A stretch of DNA of 64,000 bases from a virus. Both the position numbers and the translations under genes were made by a program. The stretch is from the IMG/VR virus record IMGVR_UViG_3300017963_000231, positions 1 through 64,000 of that record. One strand, given 5' to 3'. Position 1 is the stretch's first letter. The number at the start of each line of letters is the position of its first letter. Below the pieces are notes generated by a model. That model saw nothing but the letters and a program-made list of their open reading frames with translations, made no database searches and was not told the origin of the DNA. Below, piece after piece: positions 9,372 through 57,294 of the stretch.

Positions 9372-9445
9372 GGGCTGGTAGTGTAGCGGGAACACAGATG
9401 ACTTTGACTCATCAGTTGGAGGTTCAACTCCTTCCCGGTCCACCA
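9372..9445 (+). tRNA. tRNA-Gln(UUG)
   Basis: GGGCTGG/CCGGTCC acceptor, GTGT/ACAC D stem, GATGA-CTTTGAC-TCATC anticodon arm, GGAGG-TTCAACT-CCTTC T arm, encoded CCA. Confidence 0.9.
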
Positions 9446-12551: not shown

Positions 12552-13900
12552 ATGCAAAGGAGTACGGCTCAAAAAAGAGTTAAGGAATGGGATCTGAAAA
12601 TTAACGATCAACAATATCGGCTCGATCAACTTCAACGTCAAGTGTGGGATCTCAAGAAGAGCTTGGCGGTGAGTAAGGCTAAACGGGATGAGGTTCTCCT
12701 CGATTACTTGATGGAGGCAGAGACAACGAGTGAATTTGCGATAGGCAAGTGGCATAAATCGTCTGAAATACCGCCCCCTAAAGACGGAAGGCATATACTC
12801 GGATGTTTTACGGGAGATATCTATCAAGTCAGATGGGTTGAAGCAATAGGCTACGGTCAGGATGGGTATTGGGAACAAGCATGGATAGATAACTCCGGCG
12901 GAACTTACCTTGATCCGGAGTATTGGGTAGAAATTTTCCCTCCTGAAGGAGAAAAAAATGAGTGAGCACGATAAAGAACGTATAACTCGGGAAGAGGCTG
13001 AAAAACTTTTGAATGATGTGCTGAAAGCCCTATCAGGGGAGCGGGATTTTGATTCCATAGATATGGCCAGCGTCAAACTTCAAAAGTTCAAGGATAAATG
13101 GTTTAGTGGCTTTACCTATTCTCCTCGAAGTTGGGTACTCTGCCGATTTGTTCCGCCGAAAGATGAGCCTATTTTCCTCGTTTATAGAGGTTATAAATCG
13201 GCTGGAAATCATGAGTTTCATGTCAATGAAAGCACTTGTCCGGTGAATATTTGCCGTGGGGCAGAGACTCTCATAGTTGGGGATGATAAAGATCCTCATG
13301 GTGTGATGGAATATATTTGCGAGATGGATGCCCCTGATATTCAGGGGAAAACCGGATTTGAGATAAATGAAATCGAGGAGAAAGCCATGAAGGAACTATT
13401 CAAAATGGCTATCCCTGAGGATGCCAAGGAAACGGAATTTCTACGGATATTAGCAGGAGAAAACAATGAGTGACCTGAAAATAGTAGAATGGTTGGAAGA
13501 TTCTGATGAAATTGATGAGTTCCCTATTTCCGTCGGATGGATGGGGGGATGGGTCGGGACCAGACCTGATCCGGAGGATGAATCGGAGTTTCCTAGATCG
13601 TTATTTGATGGATCTCATCGCTGGAAGGATTATCTCGAATACCTGGAGACGATAAATCCTAAAGATGATCTTTATATAGAACCTAAATATCCTTTGGTCG
13701 ATTACATTGAGGTCATTCGGAAGGAAGTTCTCAAGCATAAGCTGAGATGGACTGGCGCTGAGCATCAAGCAATCGGAATTCCCAAGTTCTCTGATGGGAC
13801 GGTAGGGGTATTCTCCTACCGTGCTTGGGGGGATTTGATGGCCGCGATTTGGTCTGAGGAAGAGGATAAAGACTACTCGTACATGGATTTCTATTGTTGA
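12552..13900 (+). other. Hypothetical genes (12552-12965, 12958-13473, 13466-13900)
   Basis: Overlapping ORFs with SD motifs. Confidence 0.7.
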
Positions 13901-14069
13901 GCGGGAAATTAATTAAAGTACAGTTACTTGTAATTGCTTGGCTTTCAATATTTTAGTACGGTATAGCTTGACACACTACGATTATTAAGGTAGAGTAAAA
14001 ATATGGGGTTTAGGAAAAAATCTTCAAAATGCTATTGCCAACACCTGAAAAGTGTGTTACCTTTAAGAT

Positions 14070-14170
14070 CAAATATGTCCACGGATCCAATTTACTCCGT
14101 TATGGAGTTCCCTGGACCCCATACCCGTGGACAATACCAATTAGGCCCTCATTCCGGTGAGGGTCTTTTT
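14070..14170 (+). ncRNA. Candidate small RNA or attenuator leader ending in a terminator
   Basis: Promoter-like TTGCCA-17-TACCTT (14035-14063); GTCCACGG/CCGTGGAC stem; AGGCCCTCA/TGAGGGTCT hairpin plus T-run. Confidence 0.45.
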
Positions 14171-14571
14171 GCGTTTTCCTTCCTGAAGGGGAGGCCCCTT
14201 TTAACTTGGCGGTGGGGAGGGGCCTCCCCGATGATTATGGTCTAACCATGGGAAAAGTAATTCCTTTTCAGAATACCGTTTGTGTGGAGTTATTCCGCAC
14301 GTATGTTGCTTGCCCTCAATGTAAATCACGAGCTAGGCTTACCATAACATTTAATCATCAATGTTATGACTATGATATCGAGTGCTTGCATGAACCCCGT
14401 TTACATGCTGATGGGGACATGGGTAGGGATTGGGTTGACCCGGAAGGTCTTTTTCATAATCAACTCGGATGGTTTATCGAGAAATGTAGAGAGAAAAACG
14501 TGGTTTTTGAGAGTAGCGGATACAAAAAATTTCCCTTAAAAGTAATGTAAACCCTAGATTGGAGGTCGAAA

Positions 14572-28923: not shown

Positions 28924-29212
28924 CGTTACGGTATCGGGGATGGTAGTAACTCCCGTTCATGAATTGAAAACTCTTTTTGATCATGACTATTTGAATTTCC
29001 GTGTAAAAGCGGATGCGGGAAAGGGGTCGGATATTTTTGTGACGGTCAATGTTTATAGTTATACGCAAATTAAGCTGGCTAAGGATCGAGGACTTAAAAA
29101 AGGAGATAGGGTGTGGGTTCAAGGTGAACTCATGGCACGCATGACAAATGATTCCGGGCATGACGTAATTGAGGTCCGGGCATTGCAGTTGGATCCAGTT
29201 AAGGAGGTTTGA
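28913..29212 (+). CDS. Small OB-fold SSB-like protein
   Basis: NSVTVSG...LKKGDRVWVQGEL. Confidence 0.7.
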   Translation: MANSVTVSGMVVTPVHELKTLFDHDYLNFRVKADAGKGSDIFVTVNVYSYTQIKLAKDRGLKKGDRVWVQGELMARMTNDSGHDVIEVRALQLDPVKEV

Positions 29213-29213
29213 G

Positions 29214-30290
29214 ATGGTTGAAGGTCTTGAAGATTTTGAGGTAATGGAAAGCGATATTGATGATGCAATTATTGCTGAGGGGGCTGATGCTCTTGATTTT
29301 AAGACGGCAGTGATGGAGCTTACGGCTGAGGAAAAGGACGCTCTTCGGCAGGAAATCAAGGATATTGTGGAGGGAATTGATACCAATATCCTGAAGCTGG
29401 GGGGATGTCTCTATAAGGTTCTTGGGTCCAAATCTTTCCTGGATTGGGGGTTCGAGACTTTTGATGAGTACGCGGAATATGAGGTAAAGCGTAAACGGCG
29501 GTGGTGTGAATATATCATGGGGGTCTGGTATGCCATCACATTTAAGATTCAGAGCGATGAAATCAGGGATCGACTGATAGCGATGGGGACTTCCAAGGCT
29601 GGGAGACTCGCGCCTCATATTACCGAGGAGAATGCTCAAGAGCTTTTGGATGAGGTTGAGACTCTAACCGTGGCCGAAACGGAAGGCCATCTCAGGAAAC
29701 GCCGCCGGAAAGAAAAGGGGCTACCGGAGGAGAAAGAAGAGCTTCGGAAGGTGCAACTAGAGTTAACTGTATCACAACGGGACGTGATGAAGTCCGCGTT
29801 GGAGGTGGCTCGGGCCGTGGCGGGGGTCAATGGGACCGGGGAGCAACTTTCGCTGATTTGTACTGAGTTCCTTTCTTCGCATTCGGCTCCTGGGTTGGCT
29901 AAAGAGGAGTTGATTGCGGCTCATGTAGACGGACTCAAGACGCTTACGGGGTGTAATTACGAGCCTTCAGTTGGCGGGGATATCCTGGCGGTTCTCATGC
30001 AAGAGGGGATGAGTAATCCTGAAGGTATTAGGTCGAAGATTAAATCGACCGTGAAAGGTCCGCTTACATTGAAAGAGTTTGTGATATTCATGGAAAGTGG
30101 AGAGTTTCCGTCCACCGTGGCGACAATGACTCCACCGATACCGGCTCCGGATCCGGAGGCATGGGGCGATGAAGAAAGTGATTCGGCAAGTGAGGAGAGC
30201 CCGAACGAGGAGATTTCGGGCGATGGTGGTGAGGTCCAGGATGAGGAGATGGATGAAGAGGGAACTGATGGAGAACTAGAAGATGAGTAG
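29214..30290 (+). CDS. Hypothetical protein with acidic tail
   Basis: GFETFDEY motif; AGGAGG SD. Confidence 0.65.
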   Translation: MVEGLEDFEVMESDIDDAIIAEGADALDFKTAVMELTAEEKDALRQEIKDIVEGIDTNILKLGGCLYKVLGSKSFLDWGFETFDEYAEYEVKRKRRWCEYIMGVWYAITFKIQSDEIRDRLIAMGTSKAGRLAPHITEENAQELLDEVETLTVAETEGHLRKRRRKEKGLPEEKEELRKVQLELTVSQRDVMKSALEVARAVAGVNGTGEQLSLICTEFLSSHSAPGLAKEELIAAHVDGLKTLTGCNYEPSVGGDILAVLMQEGMSNPEGIRSKIKSTVKGPLTLKEFVIFMESGEFPSTVATMTPPIPAPDPEAWGDEESDSASEESPNEEISGDGGEVQDEEMDEEGTDGELEDE

Positions 30291-30483
30291 ATGGAAAGCC
30301 GGGTTTTACCAGTGGCTATCTTTTAGGTTGCCTCCTACTCTCGTGTATTTTACTGCGATTAGGCTAATGGCTCACGTAACTACGCATTAATACTCAACAT
30401 ATAATGTGAGTGATGCGCGTGCTTTGGATGTTATACAATCTTGGGAGGATTTTTTTCAGATTTATGGTGAAAAAAGTTCTTGA
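30283..30483 (+). pseudogene. Small phage gene with in-frame TAA
   Basis: MSRWK...LPPTLVYFTAIRLMAHVTTH*YSTYNVSDARALDVIQSW; stop at 30388-30390. Confidence 0.5.
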
Positions 30484-30508
30484 CAAACGGGAATAGACCG
30501 GTTATAAT
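30480..30508 (+). promoter_or_regulatory. Consensus sigma70 promoter
   Basis: TTGACA-17-TATAAT. Confidence 0.9.
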
Positions 30509-30514
30509 GCGTTT

Positions 30515-31000
30515 AGTTCATTGAGGACAAGGTTCATTGATAATTAGGTAGGCTTTCAATCGAGGGCGGTCATAAAAATGACCCGTGATGGAAACACAAG
30601 GCTAAGGCAGGTCCGACAAACCTTTGATCCATCGAGATGAGAGACGGCCATCTCTCGTAGGGACCGTTGGAGAGGGATACTCCAAGGCCGCTTTCGATTG
30701 AAGGTCTACCTATAAGGTATTCAGATAGATGGTCTAAGAAGGCCCTTATCCGGTTTCCCGATAACAAGGGTAGAAATTTATTCCGGATTTGTAGGAGGAT
30801 TCAAGTTCCTTCAGTCTATTTGAATTAACCATGATGACTTGGCTTTCCTGGCTCGGGAAAGTGGTAAGGGCCATTCGATCAGACCTTAAATTTCACGGAG
30901 CACTAAGTCATTCGCATGGACGGGTGATTTAGGTGGATAACTAGGTTTGTGGTTGATAGTGAGGACCGGGAGTGGGAATCCCCGGCAAGTCAAGTGGTGA
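30515..31000 (+). ncRNA. Large multi-domain structured RNA of unknown family
   Basis: No credible ORF; 27-bp stem 30545-71/30686-712 whose five non-Watson-Crick pairs are all G-U; further closing stems 30720-30/30814-24 and 30829-42/30903-19. Confidence 0.7.
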
Positions 31001-31016
31001 ATGGAGGGAATTTTTT

Positions 31017-31910
31017 ATGGAATTCAATAAGCACAACAATGACTTAGTACGTAGGTTAAAGGTTCGCAAGGAGGAGTTCGAGGAGGAGAAGGAGATGCTC
31101 CTGAATCATCCTGGCGTTACTGAGGAAGGGCTAAAAATCACTTTGGCTTGGTTGGATCCTATGCTTGAGGATCTGGAGAATAAAATCAGGGGGTTAGAGG
31201 GATGACGGGTGGCGGTGTAGTCAAGGAAAAGGTTTTCATTGAAAAGGTTTTCATTGTTCACATGATTGGAAATCCTACTGATTTTCATGGGAATAAGACT
31301 AATTTTCTCAATCTTGTGGAACGGGTTAAGAAGATTGATGAGGTTAGAGGGTCTAGTTTTGCAGATATCGTGGAGCATTGCATCAAAGTGAAGCAAAGTC
31401 TTATCGAATCACGGCATGGAGTGCCCATTAATGGAGTTACGGTGGTAATGGCTCCAGGAATGGAGCATTTTGCCATTTCGATTTGTAGTGGGATGGATCA
31501 GTTTAGCAGGAAAGTAGGCCGTCTCTTGGCTTTGAATCGGTTGGCGAATAAATTTGGAGTTCTGACCATGCGACCTAAGAAACGGGTGTATTATGAAGGA
31601 TATCTGATCCTGATGCCTCCGAATAACTTCTTGGCCGATGAGGCTACCAAAAGAATCAAAATTCCCGATATTCGGGAGGAGTTGGCGTGGCTGGGGGTGT
31701 GGGATGGAGAAGAATCAGGCCGTTGAGAAGCAGTGTTGTTTTATTTGTGAGAAACCGTCGAATTGTCATTGGAAATGCGATTGGTTTGACGGTTATTTTG
31801 ATTGCAGTGGTAAGGTTCCTTGTGGGTCGTGTCGAAAGTTTAAGCGGTGTGAACCTTTAATTAAGGTTTGTGTTGTAAGTGACGATAATAAGTCAGTTTT
31901 ACCAATTTGA
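31017..31910 (+). other. Three hypothetical genes (31017-31205, 31202-31726, 31704-31910)
   Basis: Overlapping ORFs; the middle one has a C..DQFSRKVGR..A..R phage motif and the last is Cys-rich. Confidence 0.65.
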
Positions 31911-31927
31911 AAAAGGAGGTCTAAGGA

Positions 31928-32704
31928 ATGAAAGAGGCTAAGGTAGGAATGATCGATCTCGGAAATACCGGGATGGATGTAGGGTCTGAGCTTTATGATA
32001 TTTGGCGGGTGAAGATCAAACTTCGGAATGTGGTTTACGGCGGGGTGCCCAAGGATCCGAAAATAATTCAGAAGTGGATTGATGAGAAGATCAAGAAGGC
32101 CATTAAGGCCGGGCATGACATCACGCCGGAAATCGCGGAGGAAGAGCGGAAAAGGATCATGGAGACTCTGAATCTGGATGAGGACTCTAAGTGGTGCGGG
32201 TTCAAGGATATCTATCAGGGCGAAGAGGTTGGGCCGTATCTGGACGGCTACAATTTCAAGGCGATGATCCGAGAAGGGGCTACTCAAACCGGAGCCATGC
32301 TCCTTCGGTTCTCAAATAACCGGGGACTTCGCCAGCATTATCAGCATGGGATGCATGTCAAGGCAGGGGACGGCAAAAGCGATATTATCAGGTTGGGTAA
32401 GGTGGATGGTCAAGAAGAGTTTGTGGGCCATGTCAAGACTCCTCAAGGCGAAAAATCCATCCTTTCTCGGCATGATTATGTGGGATCGAGGGAACTTGAA
32501 TTCCAGGTTTGGAGCCTCGCGGTAGGTATCCTGGATGATGAATTGTTGGCCACCATCTTGAAGGCTACTCAGGAGATTGGACTTGGGGCTTGCCGGTCCA
32601 GGGAGTTGAGCAAGTTCGATCTTGTGGAGATGGAGCGGATTCAGGTAGGGAAGATCGACCATTTTCTCAAGATGAAGGCCAAGAAAGGGAAAAAAGACGC
32701 ATAA
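31928..32704 (+). CDS. Stand-alone Cas7/RAMP-like RNA-binding protein
   Basis: N-terminal strand RVKIKL..VYGGVP, PYLDGYNFKAMIREG (compare Csm3 P.IPGSSLKG.LR), C-terminal Gly loop IGLGACRSRELSKF. Confidence 0.7.
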   Translation: MKEAKVGMIDLGNTGMDVGSELYDIWRVKIKLRNVVYGGVPKDPKIIQKWIDEKIKKAIKAGHDITPEIAEEERKRIMETLNLDEDSKWCGFKDIYQGEEVGPYLDGYNFKAMIREGATQTGAMLLRFSNNRGLRQHYQHGMHVKAGDGKSDIIRLGKVDGQEEFVGHVKTPQGEKSILSRHDYVGSRELEFQVWSLAVGILDDELLATILKATQEIGLGACRSRELSKFDLVEMERIQVGKIDHFLKMKAKKGKKDA

Positions 32705-32721: not shown

Positions 32722-32933
32722 ACAAGGAGTATGGTTTTTTCAGGCGGATGATTTTAACGCTTTCGGGATCATTTTAGCGTGAGGGGATTCATTTCCGATT
32801 TTTGTGGATGATTGGGCTTCTTGTGGGAAGTGGAGGGTCAACTTAGAGTTGACGGGAGTTATCGGCCCCTCCCGGCTGAGAATGACTTTGAAACGGCGGG
32901 GTTTCAGGGTAATTTGATCTTTGACAATTCAGT

Positions 32934-33400
32934 GGGACAAGTCAGGCTAGATCAGTACAAATCATGGGGACTTATCTACTCTGTGCAATACTACTCAGTT
33001 CAAATCGAGAGGACTTTTCCTTGCGCTACCTATCGGAACGGCAAGACTGATCCAGTCATCTCAACTTATATCAAATCGGAGCGACTTTGCGTTACCAGTC
33101 CACTCAGGTCGTTATGACTCATCGGATCATCTCAACTCGTGTCTAGAGGACCAATCAGCTAGAGGCAAATCGGAACGTATCCATGGGACTAATCTAATCA
33201 AATCTGTTCTGAGAGACTACACTATACAACGCACTACGAAACGGTATGACCACTCATGACGGAGCAAGGCGAAGCTATGCCCAGGGACTTATCTAATCAA
33301 ATCTGTTCTGAGAGACTAGGCACTTCATTACCTATCATTGTGACATATCAATTCGATTCCAGGGGACATATCAAACCGCTACTGATCGATACGGAGGGAC
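32934..33400 (+). repeat. Pentamer-periodic array: 14 units of NNGAC-(NNNNC)x3-7-NNN, putative guide RNA array
   Basis: NNGAC at 32934, 32967, 33010, 33043, 33081, 33114, 33147, 33185, 33213, 33246, 33284, 33312, 33340, 33363, 33396; 67 of 70 internal pentamers end in C. Confidence 0.9.
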
Positions 33401-33405
33401 AAAAT

Positions 33406-33993
33406 ATGAAATTAATGGTTTGCAATAAATGCGGAGATGTGATTTTTCCTCGCGGGGAAGCGGGGATATGGAAGTGGTGTATTTGCGGAAACATTGGAGG
33501 CATGTACGAGGACGGGTTGAAGTTTCTTGTGGCGATTGACGATCCGGATTATGCTCGGGTTGTGGGGATCGATAACAATGTTCTCGTAGGGAACTGTGAC
33601 TTAGGGGAGATATGGAAGCAAAAGCCGGGTGATCCAGCTTCCGGACGTAACCTGAAGGAGATATCCATTACCGAGGCCAGACGGGTTTACGGGTACTCTG
33701 GAGAGGCTTCGGATACTCTTGTGATCGACTTGGCTAAGGTGGTAGGGGTAGTTCCATCTGATTCGAGCCCGTGCTTTTCGGAAATGGTGTTCCATCTTGT
33801 CATGAAGGCTGATCGTATTAATAGGGAGAGGCTCAGAGCTATCTTCCCTATTTATGTTCAAATGGTGGATAGATTCCAGCTTAAAGACGGGGTTATCGCT
33901 CATCCTCAGCATCCGGAGATGGGGTTTTATGAGCCTTGCGGGGATAAGGGCTATCAGTGGCGATATCCTTTAGATACGGAGATAAGCAAGTAA
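33406..33993 (+). CDS. Hypothetical protein with N-terminal Zn finger
   Basis: CNKCGD...WCICG; SD GGAGGG overlaps the last array boundary. Confidence 0.7.
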   Translation: MKLMVCNKCGDVIFPRGEAGIWKWCICGNIGGMYEDGLKFLVAIDDPDYARVVGIDNNVLVGNCDLGEIWKQKPGDPASGRNLKEISITEARRVYGYSGEASDTLVIDLAKVVGVVPSDSSPCFSEMVFHLVMKADRINRERLRAIFPIYVQMVDRFQLKDGVIAHPQHPEMGFYEPCGDKGYQWRYPLDTEISK

Positions 33994-33997
33994 AAAC

Positions 33998-34025
33998 GGG
34001 GGCTTCGGCCCCCTAAATTTTTTTC
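33998..34025 (+). terminator. Rho-independent terminator
   Basis: GGGGGC-TTCG-GCCCCC followed by TAAATTTTTTT. Confidence 0.8.
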
Positions 34026-49883: not shown

Positions 49884-51554
49884 ATGGCTGATAAAAAAAC
49901 AAGACGTGGTTCGAGGGGCGGAAAAAAGATCAAAGAGCAGCGGGTTGTGAATCAAGAAGAGGGCGTGGTGGTAAAAGTCCTTGAGTTCGGGGGTGATGAC
50001 GCTTTGCCGGATCGTGGGGAATCAAAGCAGTTAACTCCTGATGTGTTCGAGGTAGTCATAAAAGATGGTCAGGCTATTCGACCACTTTATGATCCCCTTC
50101 TTTGGGCGACGCTTCTGGAGCAGGATGTTCGCCTTTTCCGGTGCGTGACGGCCATGGCATTGAATACTGTGGGGTCCGGATGGGAGCTTTCGGCTCGATA
50201 TGATTCAAAGGAATTTGTGGAGGAGAACAAGGAAAACATCAAAAAAGAGCGGGCGGAAATCATGCCTTTGTTCAAGTATCCGAATTCAGAGTATTCCTTT
50301 GAGGAAATGATGCAGATGATCAAGACTGATGAGGAGGCCGAAGGTCAAGGTTACATGGAGGTGTCTCGGGACAATAAAGGTCAGATCGATGGTCTTTATC
50401 ATGCTCCCGGTCACACAATCAGGGTTTTGGCCGAGAAAAAGGGATTTTTGCAGATGAGGACCAATCTCGGGTCGGATTCCTATGTTTTTTCTCCGGGGAA
50501 AACGGCTGAGGATAGTATTCAAAAGGTGTATTTTAAGAATTTCGGGGATAAACGAGCGATTGATAATCGCACGGGGGGTGAAGCTAAGGGCGCTCTTGCT
50601 CCGGAATTTCGGGCAAATGAACTCATTCAGTTCAAAATTTATACTCCTCGGAGCTCATTTTATGGGATTCCGAGAGTAGTAGCGGCGGCTCCTGCCATAT
50701 CCGGTAATCGACTGGCTCAGTTGCGGAATGTTTCGTTCTTTGAGAATGATGCTACTCCCCGGTTGGCAGTTATTGTAGAAGGTGGAAATTTGGATACATC
50801 TTCCGTCAAGATGATAGAGAACTTTATTGAAGCTCGTGGGAAAGGCCCAATGAATTTTGGCAGAGTAATGGTCCTTCAACCGCAATCACAAGAGGCCGTT
50901 CCTGGGGCTGAGAGTAAGGCTAAAATCACACTGATGCCGCTAACTGTGGGTGTAACGGAGGATGCGAGTTTTACCCGATATCTAGTTTTGAATTCGGAGA
51001 TGGTTCGTGAGGCATTTGGGATTGGCAAGATTTTCTTGGGGACGGCTGATGATGTGAATCGAGCTACTGCTTTGACGATGAAGCAAGTGACCATGGAGCA
51101 AGTATTTGAGCCTGAAATCAAGAGGTACGAGCATAGATTGGATATTACCGTTATGCGTGATCTTGGAGCGAAGTACACGCAACTCAGATTTACCCGGCCC
51201 AAGATGACGGACCTTTCTTCGGATGCTCAGGCTTACGGGGTTCTTGCGGCGGCTGGGGGAATTACGCCTAATGACATCAAGGAACTTCTTGGCCAGGATC
51301 CATTTGCGGCAGAGTGGGGTAATACTCCAATTCCTCTTATTAAGATGGGTCTTTTGGAAGGCCGCGAAGTTCCGGCTGATTTCGCGGATGGTCCTGATAG
51401 TGGTGGGGAGGGTAATGCCTCAATCGAGCAAGAAATTGCACGAGCTACCAAGTTGTTTGGGGAAGCTACGGGGTTTTCCGGAACTTTGGATCTAATAGCT
51501 AATGGTGATCCTCAAGAAGTGGTGCATAAGTTACGGGCATTAGTGGAAAAGTAG
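49884..51554 (+). CDS. Portal protein
   Basis: Follows TerL; FYGIP, FFENDATP, ITPND motifs typical of PBSX-type portals. Confidence 0.9.
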   Translation: MADKKTRRGSRGGKKIKEQRVVNQEEGVVVKVLEFGGDDALPDRGESKQLTPDVFEVVIKDGQAIRPLYDPLLWATLLEQDVRLFRCVTAMALNTVGSGWELSARYDSKEFVEENKENIKKERAEIMPLFKYPNSEYSFEEMMQMIKTDEEAEGQGYMEVSRDNKGQIDGLYHAPGHTIRVLAEKKGFLQMRTNLGSDSYVFSPGKTAEDSIQKVYFKNFGDKRAIDNRTGGEAKGALAPEFRANELIQFKIYTPRSSFYGIPRVVAAAPAISGNRLAQLRNVSFFENDATPRLAVIVEGGNLDTSSVKMIENFIEARGKGPMNFGRVMVLQPQSQEAVPGAESKAKITLMPLTVGVTEDASFTRYLVLNSEMVREAFGIGKIFLGTADDVNRATALTMKQVTMEQVFEPEIKRYEHRLDITVMRDLGAKYTQLRFTRPKMTDLSSDAQAYGVLAAAGGITPNDIKELLGQDPFAAEWGNTPIPLIKMGLLEGREVPADFADGPDSGGEGNASIEQEIARATKLFGEATGFSGTLDLIANGDPQEVVHKLRALVEK

Positions 51555-51634
51555 CACTTGACAAGTCGGTATATTTATGTTTTACTCAATAATGAAAGGT
51601 TGAAGGGCCTTTCCAACCAAAGGAGGATAAAGAC

Positions 51635-52019
51635 ATGGCAAAGAATCAAGCGGGATTGACTGGACCAATCGGTGGGACTGCCAAGCGGACTTCTGCGGTG
51701 ATCGACACTGGAAAGCAGAATAACGATCCGATGGCTTCTCCGGATTCCAAATCCAGCATGAAAACTCCCAATCTGACTGCTCGCAAGCAACGCCGGATGG
51801 CAGAGTAAGGGGGGCGGGGCCATGGCCCGTAGGAATGATAAGTTCCTGCGTCAAGCAACGGAAGCTATTGCTTCTAATGCCAAACCGGGTTTCCATGGCG
51901 AAGTCACCGTCCAGGTGAAAATTCAGAATGGGGTTATCCAGAGTGGTCATGTAGAGAAGTCTACTCGGGTGTCCCGGCAAGGGAACACTACGTTAGTAGA
52001 AAAGATCAAACTGGATTGA
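51635..52019 (+). other. Two small ORFs (51635-51808, 57 aa; 51822-52019, DUF2292-like) behind a promoter at 51558-51586
   Basis: TTGACA-17-TTTACT; AGGAGG SD; FHGEVTVQVKIQNGVI. Confidence 0.55.
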
Positions 52020-52055
52020 GCTAGTCGGTATTAGCCGGGCCTCATGGTATCAGGC

Positions 52056-52095
52056 AAGCCGCTAAGGGGTTATTATGCCCTTTAGCGGCTTTTTT
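52056..52095 (+). terminator. Rho-independent terminator
   Basis: AAGCCGCTAAGGGG...CCCTTTAGCGGCTT followed by a T-run. Confidence 0.8.
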
Positions 52096-52109
52096 ATTTG
52101 GGGGTCAAT

Positions 52110-55512: not shown

Positions 55513-56814
55513 ATGTCGATTAACGAAGAACTCATTGAAAAAACTCTTGAAAGCGGCGATTTTTTTGCCGGTGGGGAGATTAACCCTACTCAGCAAGCGG
55601 AATTCGTTCGGCTGGTCAAGGATTTTTCGGTAATGTTGAGCATGGTCCGTTTTGTGGATATGCCGACTAAACGTTATCTCATTGACAAGATCCATCTTGG
55701 GGAGCCCATCACGCGGGGTATTGCGGAGAATACCAATGCGATGACCAACCTGATTTCCCCGAAGATGAATCAGATCGAGCTTACCACGAGCAAGATCAAG
55801 ACTGCTTATGCCATCACCACTGAGGCCCTTCAGGTTGCCCTTAATCAGGAGGATCTTGAGGATACTGTGCTGGAAATGGTGACTAAGCGGTATTCAACTG
55901 ACGTGGAGATTCTCGCCATTTCGGGCGATGACACCGTGACCGGTACTACTCCTTACGATGAACTGATCAAGGTTCTCGATGGATGGGACAAGATCACTGA
56001 TGACGCTCAGGTGGTGGATGCCGCTGGCGCAACCATTTCCAAGGCGGTGTTCACTGAGGCTCTGCGGACCATGCCTCAGCAATATCTCCAGGATCCTGAT
56101 CTTCGGTTCCTGATGTCCAGGATGACCAATATCGATTGGATGGATGAGATTGCGGATCGGGAAACGTCCTTGGGTGATGCGGCTTACCGGGGTGACGCGG
56201 CTGGTATGATGGGTGTTCCGGCTTCCATCGTTCCTCTGATCCCCTCGAACAAGCCCGTTGCCGTGGCGGCGGCTACTCCAGCTATCGTGGTCGGCGCTCA
56301 GTATGGTCCTTTTGAGATTGTCACTGGATCGAATGATCTGATCAACCTGGATATCGACAATGCCGGTGCCCACGAAGTTACCCTGACTCAAGGGGTGTGG
56401 GAGGCTATCCGGATTGCGGCCCAACTCAACGCGGATGCTACTTTTGCGGCTAATGGCCTTGTGGCTTCTGACAATGATGGGCGGCTTCAACTGGCCTCTT
56501 CGACTACGGGTGCGACTTCGGAGATTGATATCCAGGCGACTTCAACTCCGGGACAGTCGGCTTATGCCGCGCTCGGTTTGACCATTGCCGCTACTACGGG
56601 TGCCGCCGCTGGTTCGGGTTCTCTTAATGAGGGAACTCTCATTTGGCTGGCCAACCCGATGAACTTCATCTTCGGGATGCTGGATTCGACTCGCGTATTC
56701 TCCGAGTTCAACAAGGATTATGATCGTGTTGAGGTCGTGATGTATAACGAGGTTGCGGTACAAGTGGAAAATCTGGAATCCATCGTGAAGGTCACGAATA
56801 TCGCCCGCAAGTAA
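55513..56814 (+). CDS. Major capsid protein (HK97 fold) with inserted domain
   Basis: GEINPTQQAEF, AISGD, MPQQY, ANPMNFIFG; position. Confidence 0.9.
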   Translation: MSINEELIEKTLESGDFFAGGEINPTQQAEFVRLVKDFSVMLSMVRFVDMPTKRYLIDKIHLGEPITRGIAENTNAMTNLISPKMNQIELTTSKIKTAYAITTEALQVALNQEDLEDTVLEMVTKRYSTDVEILAISGDDTVTGTTPYDELIKVLDGWDKITDDAQVVDAAGATISKAVFTEALRTMPQQYLQDPDLRFLMSRMTNIDWMDEIADRETSLGDAAYRGDAAGMMGVPASIVPLIPSNKPVAVAAATPAIVVGAQYGPFEIVTGSNDLINLDIDNAGAHEVTLTQGVWEAIRIAAQLNADATFAANGLVASDNDGRLQLASSTTGATSEIDIQATSTPGQSAYAALGLTIAATTGAAAGSGSLNEGTLIWLANPMNFIFGMLDSTRVFSEFNKDYDRVEVVMYNEVAVQVENLESIVKVTNIARK

Positions 56815-56838
56815 GCGGACGATGATTAGGGGGTAGTC

Positions 56839-57294
56839 ATGGCGAAATTTGATCTAGTGATGGATCAGAGCAAACGAGTGGCTTGCCCGTCCGGTCGAAA
56901 GTATTACTTTGTCGCCGGGTATCCGCTGGATATTCTGGACGATGGGGATAAGGAATTTTTGAGAGGCCAACCGGATTTTTTTCTGGAAGTGGCTGATCAA
57001 GGTAAAGTTCCGGCTACACCGGATAAGGAGGAGGGGTCTCCCCCGCAATCGGCCCCTCCTCCTGCCCCTAAAAAGGGGAAGGCGGCTAAACCCAAAAAGA
57101 AAAAGAGGACTTATGACCTGGATAAGCTGGATGCTGATCGGGTTATCGAAGATGAACTTCTAGCGAAGAATTCTGATGGTCCTTGGAATTGCCCGATCTG
57201 CGGACGCAAGAATATCAAGACTAAAAGTGGGTTGCGGGCTCATGTAGGGTCTACTAAATGTGTGGAAGCGGCGAGGGAAAAGCTAAGTGAGTAA
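56839..57294 (+). CDS. Hypothetical protein with C2H-type Zn finger
   Basis: CPICG...GLRAH. Confidence 0.6.
   Translation: MAKFDLVMDQSKRVACPSGRKYYFVAGYPLDILDDGDKEFLRGQPDFFLEVADQGKVPATPDKEEGSPPQSAPPPAPKKGKAAKPKKKKRTYDLDKLDADRVIEDELLAKNSDGPWNCPICGRKNIKTKSGLRAHVGSTKCVEAAREKLSE

Follow-up and report, generated by a model that had tools for sequence, protein, structure and literature searches.

What stands behind a perfect promoter when some 500 nucleotides (nt) pass before the first gene? The question is raised by a locus on the + strand of a virus sequence, here called the window: the first 64 kb (64,000 nt) of the 86.8-kb IMG/VR record IMGVR_UViG_3300017963_000231, whose completeness is estimated at ~67% (CheckV). 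A consensus promoter at 30480–30508 is followed there by a strongly folded stretch, which runs from a predicted transcript start at 30515 to the ribosome-binding site of a small open reading frame (ORF), orf62; a putative RAMP/Vipr-like gene and a phased array lie further downstream. We read the stretch as a cis-acting, co-transcribed structured 5′ leader of a ~3.5-kb operon, tentatively and with a confidence that stops a little short of an even chance. The leader is new as a sequence and unusual in size. The initial annotation had seen here a structured non-coding RNA of ~490 nt; its non-coding character and its strong, strand-specific structure behind a promoter held up, but it is not a separate gene and has no terminator of its own.

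A folded, gene-free stretch behind a strong promoter

The leader does not encode a protein. All six frames of 30515–31016 are broken, each with TAA, TAG and TGA, and there is no 3-nt periodicity; period-3 power lies at background, against a value of 7.06 for G in the neighbouring gene. A protein-coding gene, standard or recoded, was rejected on these grounds, in agreement with the ORF-free stretch first described. The interval 30291–30971 (681 nt) is the record's largest + strand gap without an ORF of at least 60 amino acids (aa), and the next largest measures 271 nt.

Folded as RNA, 30515–31010 has a minimum free energy (MFE) of -183.4 kcal/mol (z -5.6), and none of 100 dinucleotide shuffles is as stable; the centroid retains the same three domains as the MFE structure. 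The - strand of the leader reaches -142.1 kcal/mol (z -4.4), 41 kcal/mol weaker than the + strand, and the 189-nt spacer before the promoter (30291–30479) has a z of -1.0. G-U pairs outnumber A-C 1x1 mismatches by 27 to 1 in the + strand fold, against 10 to 3 in the - strand fold. This asymmetry favours selection acting on the + strand RNA, although G-U pairs also form more easily on a strand rich in G. A composition-corrected MFE scan over 866 windows of 300 nt ranks two leader windows 5th and 6th; the leader fold is exceptional, yet not unique in strength genome-wide.

Domain 1 (D1, 30545–30712, + strand) is closed by a helix of 23–27 base pairs (bp) with four to five G-U pairs, which leads into a junction of four hairpins (MFE -77.3 kcal/mol, z -8.1). 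Read by hand, 30545–30571 pairs with 30686–30712 in 27 contiguous pairs, and the five that are non-Watson-Crick are all G-U, exactly as the initial annotation had it. The RNAfold MFE structure keeps 23 of these pairs (30545–30567 with 30690–30712, four G-U) and gives the last four to a hairpin, GGUCAU/AUGACC. Two other D1 hairpins named at the outset, GAGAGA/UCUCUC and UUGGAG/CUCCAA, occur in both the MFE and the centroid structure. Domain 2 (D2), whose borders had also been proposed, is found at 30719–30825 (+ strand), with a 12-bp closing helix around three hairpins (z -3.7). Domain 3 (D3, 30829–31000, + strand) is branched, with hairpins of 9 and 12 bp and a GGGA (GNRA-type) tetraloop hairpin at 30965–30984 (z -3.15). 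Here the first description stood in part: the CUUUCC/GGAAAG pairing is in the MFE structure, but TAAGG/CCTTA is not, and the domain, closed at ~30829–30997 in the MFE structure, is larger than had been claimed. An 11-nt stretch of D3 (30902–30912) is a perfect complement of orf62 codons 8–11 (31038–31048); it is one of nine such 11-mers genome-wide, with ~10 expected, and the only local one.

Strong folds also occur elsewhere in the record. The three strongest composition-corrected 300-nt windows lie at 51550–52100 and 56801–57100 of the window and at 84501–84800 of the genome. In the first of them (z -4.6), a small ORF behind a good ribosome-binding site is closed off by a strong terminator; small ORFs and terminators are what the inspected strong-fold places outside the leader contain. 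At 13895–14400, a 300-nt window reaches z -5.6 with mononucleotide shuffles, but 13895–14210 reaches only -1.8 with dinucleotide shuffles; there is probably no structured RNA at this place.

The promoter is of the sigma-70 type, TTGACA-17-TATAAT, and was rightly called perfect: it matches the consensus at 12 of 12 positions (30480–30508, + strand), and by our own calculation ~0.02 perfect sites would be expected by chance (87 kb, three spacer lengths). The 86.8-kb record carries two perfect and eight 11/12 promoters on the + strand, and one 11/12 promoter on the - strand. Most + strand sites have in common an extended consensus, (A/T)-tract-C-TTGACAAACG...TATAmT, so that promoter 30480 is one of the phage's regular strong promoters. 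Family members on the + strand lie at window positions 1519, 4196, 6127, 17765, 19524, 30480, 34035, 35630 and 38412 and at genome position 86342; most show a T/A tract, CTTGACAAACG, TATACT or TATAAT, and then AGTTTT. At the other family promoters a start codon follows almost immediately downstream; promoter 30480 is instead followed by 500 nt without a gene. One metagenome-run contig matches the promoter-like stretch at 30470–30520 between flanks that are unrelated on both sides, and is probably another copy of the promoter family.

The region of the predicted transcript start (30515–30541, + strand) contains two direct copies of GTTCATTGA, at 30516 and 30532, the second lying 16 nt beyond the first. 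The predicted +1 itself falls at an 11-nt box, AGTTCATTGAG, which may be an operator or may be a 5′-terminal RNA element marking the 5′ end of the RNA.

The operon downstream and its setting

Between the structure and orf62 there is no intrinsic terminator; on the + strand, a weak site within D2 is all that resembles one. A good Shine-Dalgarno sequence and an ATG follow directly after D3: GGAGGGA (31003–31009) and the 62-aa orf62, which starts at ATG 31017 and forms the first cistron (31003–31205, + strand). It overlaps the 174-aa orf174 (31202–31726, + strand) through ATGA. Then come the putative 258-aa RAMP/Vipr-like gene (31928–32704, + strand) and an array in which C is fixed every 5 nt (32923–33400, + strand). 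The listed 245-aa ORF at 33256–33993 overlaps this array; since its relatives align only from residue 48 on, the true start is probably an ATG at ~33406 behind GGAGGGA, which would leave an ORF of ~196 aa. The unit ends at a strong intrinsic terminator, GGGGGCTTCGGCCCCC plus a T run with a GC-rich hairpin (33998–34013, + strand). From orf62 to 33998 neither a strong promoter nor a strong terminator occurs; the next promoter of the family (34035) comes directly behind the terminator.

Because no terminator precedes the Shine-Dalgarno and ATG of orf62 and the first strong one stands at 33998, the folded stretch is the 5′ leader of an operon and not a separate gene. It is the head of one unit consisting of leader, orf62, orf174, the RAMP-like gene, the phased array and the ~196-aa ORF, and the earlier view that it leads into the RAMP-like gene and array was therefore sound. 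A 5-nt-phased non-coding array beside a RAMP-like gene is one expected mark of a VIPR system, and this arrangement is found here. The sequence profiles of the RAMP-like family reach no solved Vipr chain, and tblastn of the RAMP-like protein against phage records gives one match, at 28%, in Microcystis phage Mae-JY09. For the 174-aa ORF no Pfam or PHROG family was found.

The wider surroundings are as follows. On the 5′ side of the leader lie genes for a Cas4-like exonuclease, a RuvC-like resolvase and a 373-aa protein of unknown function; on the 3′ side, orf62, orf174, the RAMP-like gene and the array are followed by CobS-like and CobT-like genes. The flanking proteins are almost orphans, with three matches for the 174-aa protein and one for the 373-aa protein among 5.8 billion proteins. 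The + strand carries almost all genes and is G-rich (GC skew ~+0.2 to +0.3), and the skew does not shift at the leader position. Near-identical DNA is present in sediment and seawater metagenomes.

Seven DNA sequencing runs from five studies contain such near-identical DNA, and four of them (X3–X6) were compared, as short contigs of near-identical strains. The parts of the leader that they cover are without difference (30508–30680 in X3 and X4, 30583–30767 in X5), and 30768–31051 is uncovered. Strain variants occur in the upstream spacer as three single-nucleotide polymorphisms (SNPs; 30414, 30415 and 30465). In orf174 (31226 and 31576–31581) there are a 15-nt deletion and a 6-nt insertion, both in frame, and two SNPs. 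Taken together, these numbers are too few for any test.

Related loci and searches for homologs

Three Joint Genome Institute (JGI) metagenome contigs, L003, L004 and L005, were retrieved with the 174-aa protein aligned to its two distant matches; all three are syntenic with the window from the exonuclease through the CobS-like gene. Identity to the window is 43–53% for the 373-aa protein, 37–39% for the 174-aa protein and 62–70% for the RAMP-like protein. The promoter keeps its position in all three relatives, with the same TTGACAAACG and 17-nt spacing (TATAAT in L003, TATAGT in L004 and L005), and at four of four loci it is directly followed by a structured element. L004 and L005 also have the C-phased array on the 3′ side of their RAMP-like gene. 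Fully phased windows (six of six bases) number 10 in the window's array, 28 in L004 and 31 in L005, against 0 in a control gene; the arrays of the relatives are larger (L004, 5803–6890, ~1.1 kb; L005, 2671–4300, ~1.6 kb), with the same phasing of one C per five.

The leaders themselves differ greatly. L003 has an ORF-free leader of 438 nt (z -6.3) with three stem-closed domains, the first of them with two stacked 11-bp helices, followed by the gene of a 178-aa coiled-coil protein. L005 has ~140 nt with one long hairpin (z -4.8 on both strands), followed by a 207-aa protein, and L004 ~120 nt with a small three-way junction (z -2.0), followed by a 173-aa protein. The 11-nt box at the predicted +1 is identical in the long leader of L003 and missing from the short leaders of L004 and L005. 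Comparison of the window leader with the relatives by nhmmer and blastn finds similarity in the promoter and the 11-nt box only. Judged by the RAMP-like protein, L004 stands nearest to the window (69.8%) and L003 is the most distant (63.9%), so the two long leaders do not belong to sister phages.

Domain 2 of the L003 leader (1238–1365) is clearly homologous to the L005 hairpin (539–640), and no counterpart aligns in the window. The two have 20 of 21 aligned positions of the 5′ arm, GTTCCGGnTCATACCG, in common, and in their 11-bp closing helix one change is compensatory and two are wobble changes. When this arm motif was searched in IMG/VR, none of its 36 matches encoded a relative of any window protein, and they were set aside as chance. 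A 6-mer, TTCCGG, occurs in all four leaders and was likewise rejected, since 190 of 2000 shuffles have some 6-mer in common. A covariance model built from the single D1 sequence finds only generic long hairpins (best E 0.15; 0.23–0.24 for the L003 and L005 leaders).

At the end of the L003 leader (1454–1491) lies a T-arm-like hairpin, GGGGG-UUCGAUU-CCUCC, which is the sole piece that matches the transfer-messenger RNA (tmRNA) model, at 11.6 bits against a threshold of 47. The 3′ strand of this hairpin, an anti-Shine-Dalgarno, can instead pair with the Shine-Dalgarno of the next gene, so that two mutually exclusive hairpins are predicted. As modelled, the L003 end is laid out like a translational switch, and to that extent the L003 leader supports a regulatory role.

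The position of orf62 is occupied in the relatives by the coiled-coil protein of 173–207 aa, to which orf62 has no demonstrable relation (hhalign probability 0.8%). The idea that the window leader is a pseudogene of the relatives' coiled-coil gene was rejected after tblastn gave no signal (best E 0.89). Leaders and first genes are thus non-homologous between a conserved promoter and a conserved orf174, and the promoter-to-orf174 segment is therefore a variable cassette in which a structured leader is constant and its sequence and size are not conserved. The leader is lineage-specific and turns over fast; it is not an obligatory partner of the VIPR-like system.

Searches for the identity of the RNA gave no known family. 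Rfam 15 covariance models at gathering thresholds find nothing at the leader in the 64-kb window, where a transfer RNA (tRNA) at 9372 is the sole match, and a search of 30250–31100 up to E 10 yields three chance-level matches (14–18 bits against thresholds of 48–80). The Rfam library presumably includes tmRNA, RNase P, 6S, group I and II introns, GOLLD, ROOL, OLE, Y RNA, riboswitches, T-box and self-cleaving ribozymes. The initial statement that the element is not recognisable as tmRNA, RNase P, 6S or an intron is upheld, with no family match for GOLLD, ROOL or Y RNA either. ARAGORN reports no tRNA or tmRNA in 28940–32520 of the window or in L003, L004 and L005. A hammerhead-like UGAUGA...GAAA in D3, spotted by eye, is unsupported by Rfam.

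The homologs and covariation by which the initial annotation meant the RNA to be judged did not appear: the collections searched contain no sequence homolog, and hence there is no covariation for the window RNA. Blastn in distant mode against 50,697 phage records finds no match to the leader, the DNA pattern of promoter plus +1 box has 0 matches in IMG/VR, and tblastn of the 373-aa protein against phage records finds none. IMG/VR searches with single flanking proteins return no syntenic locus, apart from which one distant CobS-like locus, L002, is non-syntenic; protein-alignment searches in IMG/VR and genome contigs add none beyond the three relatives. A repeated mobile element (e.g. a miniature inverted-repeat element) was rejected, as the 86.8-kb record contains only chance-level 11-mers of the leader elsewhere (19 direct and 9 complementary, ~21 expected). 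Complementarity or repeats between leader and genome, considered as a candidate signal, are also at chance level.

A proposed processed leader and its rivals

The leader is probably transcribed as the head of the VIPR-like operon and, by analogy, probably processed at its long helices. Host RNA polymerase would start at ~30515 from the consensus promoter. The three independently closed domains would then fold co-transcriptionally, in order of synthesis, and their long, near-perfect helices (23–27 bp in D1, 12 bp in D2 and D3) would offer RNase III-type substrates. Cutting would detach one or more compact structured RNAs, and the cleaved mRNA may differ from the primary transcript in its 5′ end, stability and translation. 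In such a scheme the leader would act in cis, and its transcription, its processing by RNase III and any regulatory effect are what we infer from this layout.

RNase III processing of phage leaders has precedents in the early-mRNA processing sites, leaders and intercistronic ones, of phage T7 (early region) and Bacillus phage SP82 and in the lambda N leader. These sites, like the leader described here, lie behind a strong host-type early promoter, are co-transcribed and have helices of at least 20 bp; where a helix of ~20 bp or more behind an early promoter is expected of an RNase III leader, D1 has 27 contiguous pairs, 23 of them in the MFE structure. They differ in being single hairpins of 50–100 nt, whereas the window leader has 500 nt in three multibranch domains and its cleavage is predicted only. 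The leaders of L003, L004 and L005 are alike in promoter, in their place between the 373-aa gene and the operon and in being structured, and L003 also in the +1 box and the three-domain plan; they differ in having no alignable sequence and in their lengths of 438, ~120 and ~140 nt.

Several findings weigh against a processed cis-acting leader. The window's own RNA has neither a sequence homolog nor covariation, the D1 covariance model finds only generic long hairpins (E ~0.2), and the TTCCGG that all four leaders contain is not significant. L004, the closest relative by its RAMP-like protein (69.8%), has just a weakly structured leader of ~120 nt; a large RNA is thus dispensable for the operon and could be neutral. 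What speaks most strongly against an essential function is the state of L004 and L005, where the same operon, with larger arrays, stands behind leaders of 120–140 nt. The + strand is G-rich (GC skew ~+0.3), which by itself favours G-U pairs, and, once composition is corrected for, the fold is equalled or surpassed in four other 300-nt windows of the genome. Transcription is predicted from the sequence, and RNase III cleavage is purely inferred.

The rival that survives best, possible but rather unlikely, is a trans-acting large non-coding RNA: a phage analogue of the ornate RNAs of the ROOL/GOLLD type. It would be transcribed at the head of the operon message, be freed from it by processing and have a role of its own, e.g. 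in host takeover, in anti-defence or as a helper of the VIPR-like system. ROOL and GOLLD are large ornate RNAs, often carried by phages or prophages (bioRxiv 10.1101/2024.12.08.627333). The window leader resembles them in being phage-borne, several hundred nt long, multi-domain and without an assigned function, and differs in having no Rfam match, no terminator of its own and no conserved homologs. ROOL and GOLLD are associated with tRNA-gene neighbourhoods; such a neighbourhood is absent here, where the only tRNA found in the window lies at 9372. A length of ~500 nt in three stem-closed domains, with D1 at z -8.1, fits such an RNA, as does the position in the only gap of this kind in the genome. 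L003 carries another long version, alike in gross plan and in its 5′-terminal 11-mer, and the long terminal stems recall the processing stems that release stable RNAs, as in rRNA precursors. Against it, there is no terminator or recognisable 3′ end and no match in Rfam, the two long versions have no detectable sequence in common beyond 11 nt, and the RNA is absent from L004 and L005 despite the same operon.

A functionless or selfish origin, in which the variable promoter-orf174 cassette would hold what is left of a decayed gene or an inverted-repeat mobile element, is unlikely. It would account for the non-homology of this segment, where the window has its leader and orf62 and the others have a short or long leader and a coiled-coil gene of 173–207 aa, and for the 27-bp inverted repeat that bounds D1. 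But tblastn with the coiled-coil proteins finds nothing in the leader (best E 0.89), and the genome holds no second copy beyond chance 11-mers. The five imperfections of the repeat are moreover all G-U on the + strand, for which chance would be ~0.03 if transitions fell randomly between the arms, and the structure spans three domains, well beyond the repeat.

Control of operon translation or elongation by a sensing riboregulator (riboswitch, protein- or tRNA-binding leader) is improbable. The leader does sit between the promoter and the first ribosome-binding site; the L003 end, with two mutually exclusive hairpins of which one hides the Shine-Dalgarno, would suit such a device, and so would the 11-nt complement between D3 and orf62 codons 8–11. 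That complement is, however, one of 9 genome-wide where ~10 are expected by chance, and the Shine-Dalgarno in the window is not clearly sequestered. Even at E up to 10 no match to a riboswitch, T-box or leader family appears, a length of 500 nt far exceeds known sensors, and the four leaders have no conserved core.

About as improbable, and frankly speculative, is a new class of large phage RNAs that travels with VIPR-like operons, with this leader as its founding member. Such RNAs would have three stem-closed domains, be excised from the operon transcript and act in trans, e.g. in the control of guide-array loading or processing or as decoys against silencing of this locus by RNA-guided systems of rival phages, and the 438-nt RNA of L003 would be a second, highly diverged member.

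A function at the DNA level, as a transcription-primed replication origin or as an operator with incidental hairpins, is very improbable. The strong promoter lies just 3′ of recombination and replication genes (Cas4-like exonuclease, RuvC), and the two GTTCATTGA direct repeats overlap +1, a position typical of operators. Yet the imperfections are G-U and not A-C, with a - strand fold 41 kcal/mol weaker; GC skew is unchanged here, and an operator would cover only 27 of the 500 nt.

In the VIPR literature, vrRNAs, the VIPR guide RNAs, are ~100 nt long and consist of 9–16 5-nt repeats in tandem (consensus YNNGG or related) ahead of a structured tail; hammerhead-interspersed arrays also occur among VIPR systems (bioRxiv 10.64898/2026.04.26.720920). 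Like the vrRNA genes of that account, the leader is a non-coding RNA that flanks a small phage RAMP-like gene in the same transcription unit; it differs in having no tandem 5-nt repeats and in being far larger than ~100 nt, and this phage has its phased array on the 3′ side of the gene. A vrRNA or guide array hidden in the leader, ahead of the protein genes, is hardly credible. Long intergenic regions do flank vipr genes, and in Escherichia phage SUSP1 one vrRNA lies upstream (bioRxiv 10.64898/2026.04.26.720920), but Fourier analysis of the leader shows no 5-nt periodicity, no base gives it a single window with six of six positions in phase (against 10, 28 and 31 C-phased windows in the arrays of the window, L004 and L005), and a G run at 5-nt spacing (30959–31004, 9/10) is within chance by our own estimate.

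The cis-acting, processed leader remains the reading that we tentatively prefer. Phages seldom carry large RNAs with extensive structure, and for the few examples known (ROOL, GOLLD) a function is still lacking. Through its transcription unit the leader is linked to a class of RNA-guided phage systems that has only recently been described, and the searched text of two VIPR papers mentions no large structured leader (10.64898/2026.04.26.720920, 10.64898/2026.10.15.759431). If the leader is processed to a stable RNA, it would count as a new RNA family and might add a level of control to VIPR-type systems; if it is only a variable leader, the promoter-proximal part of the operon turns over much faster than the operon genes.

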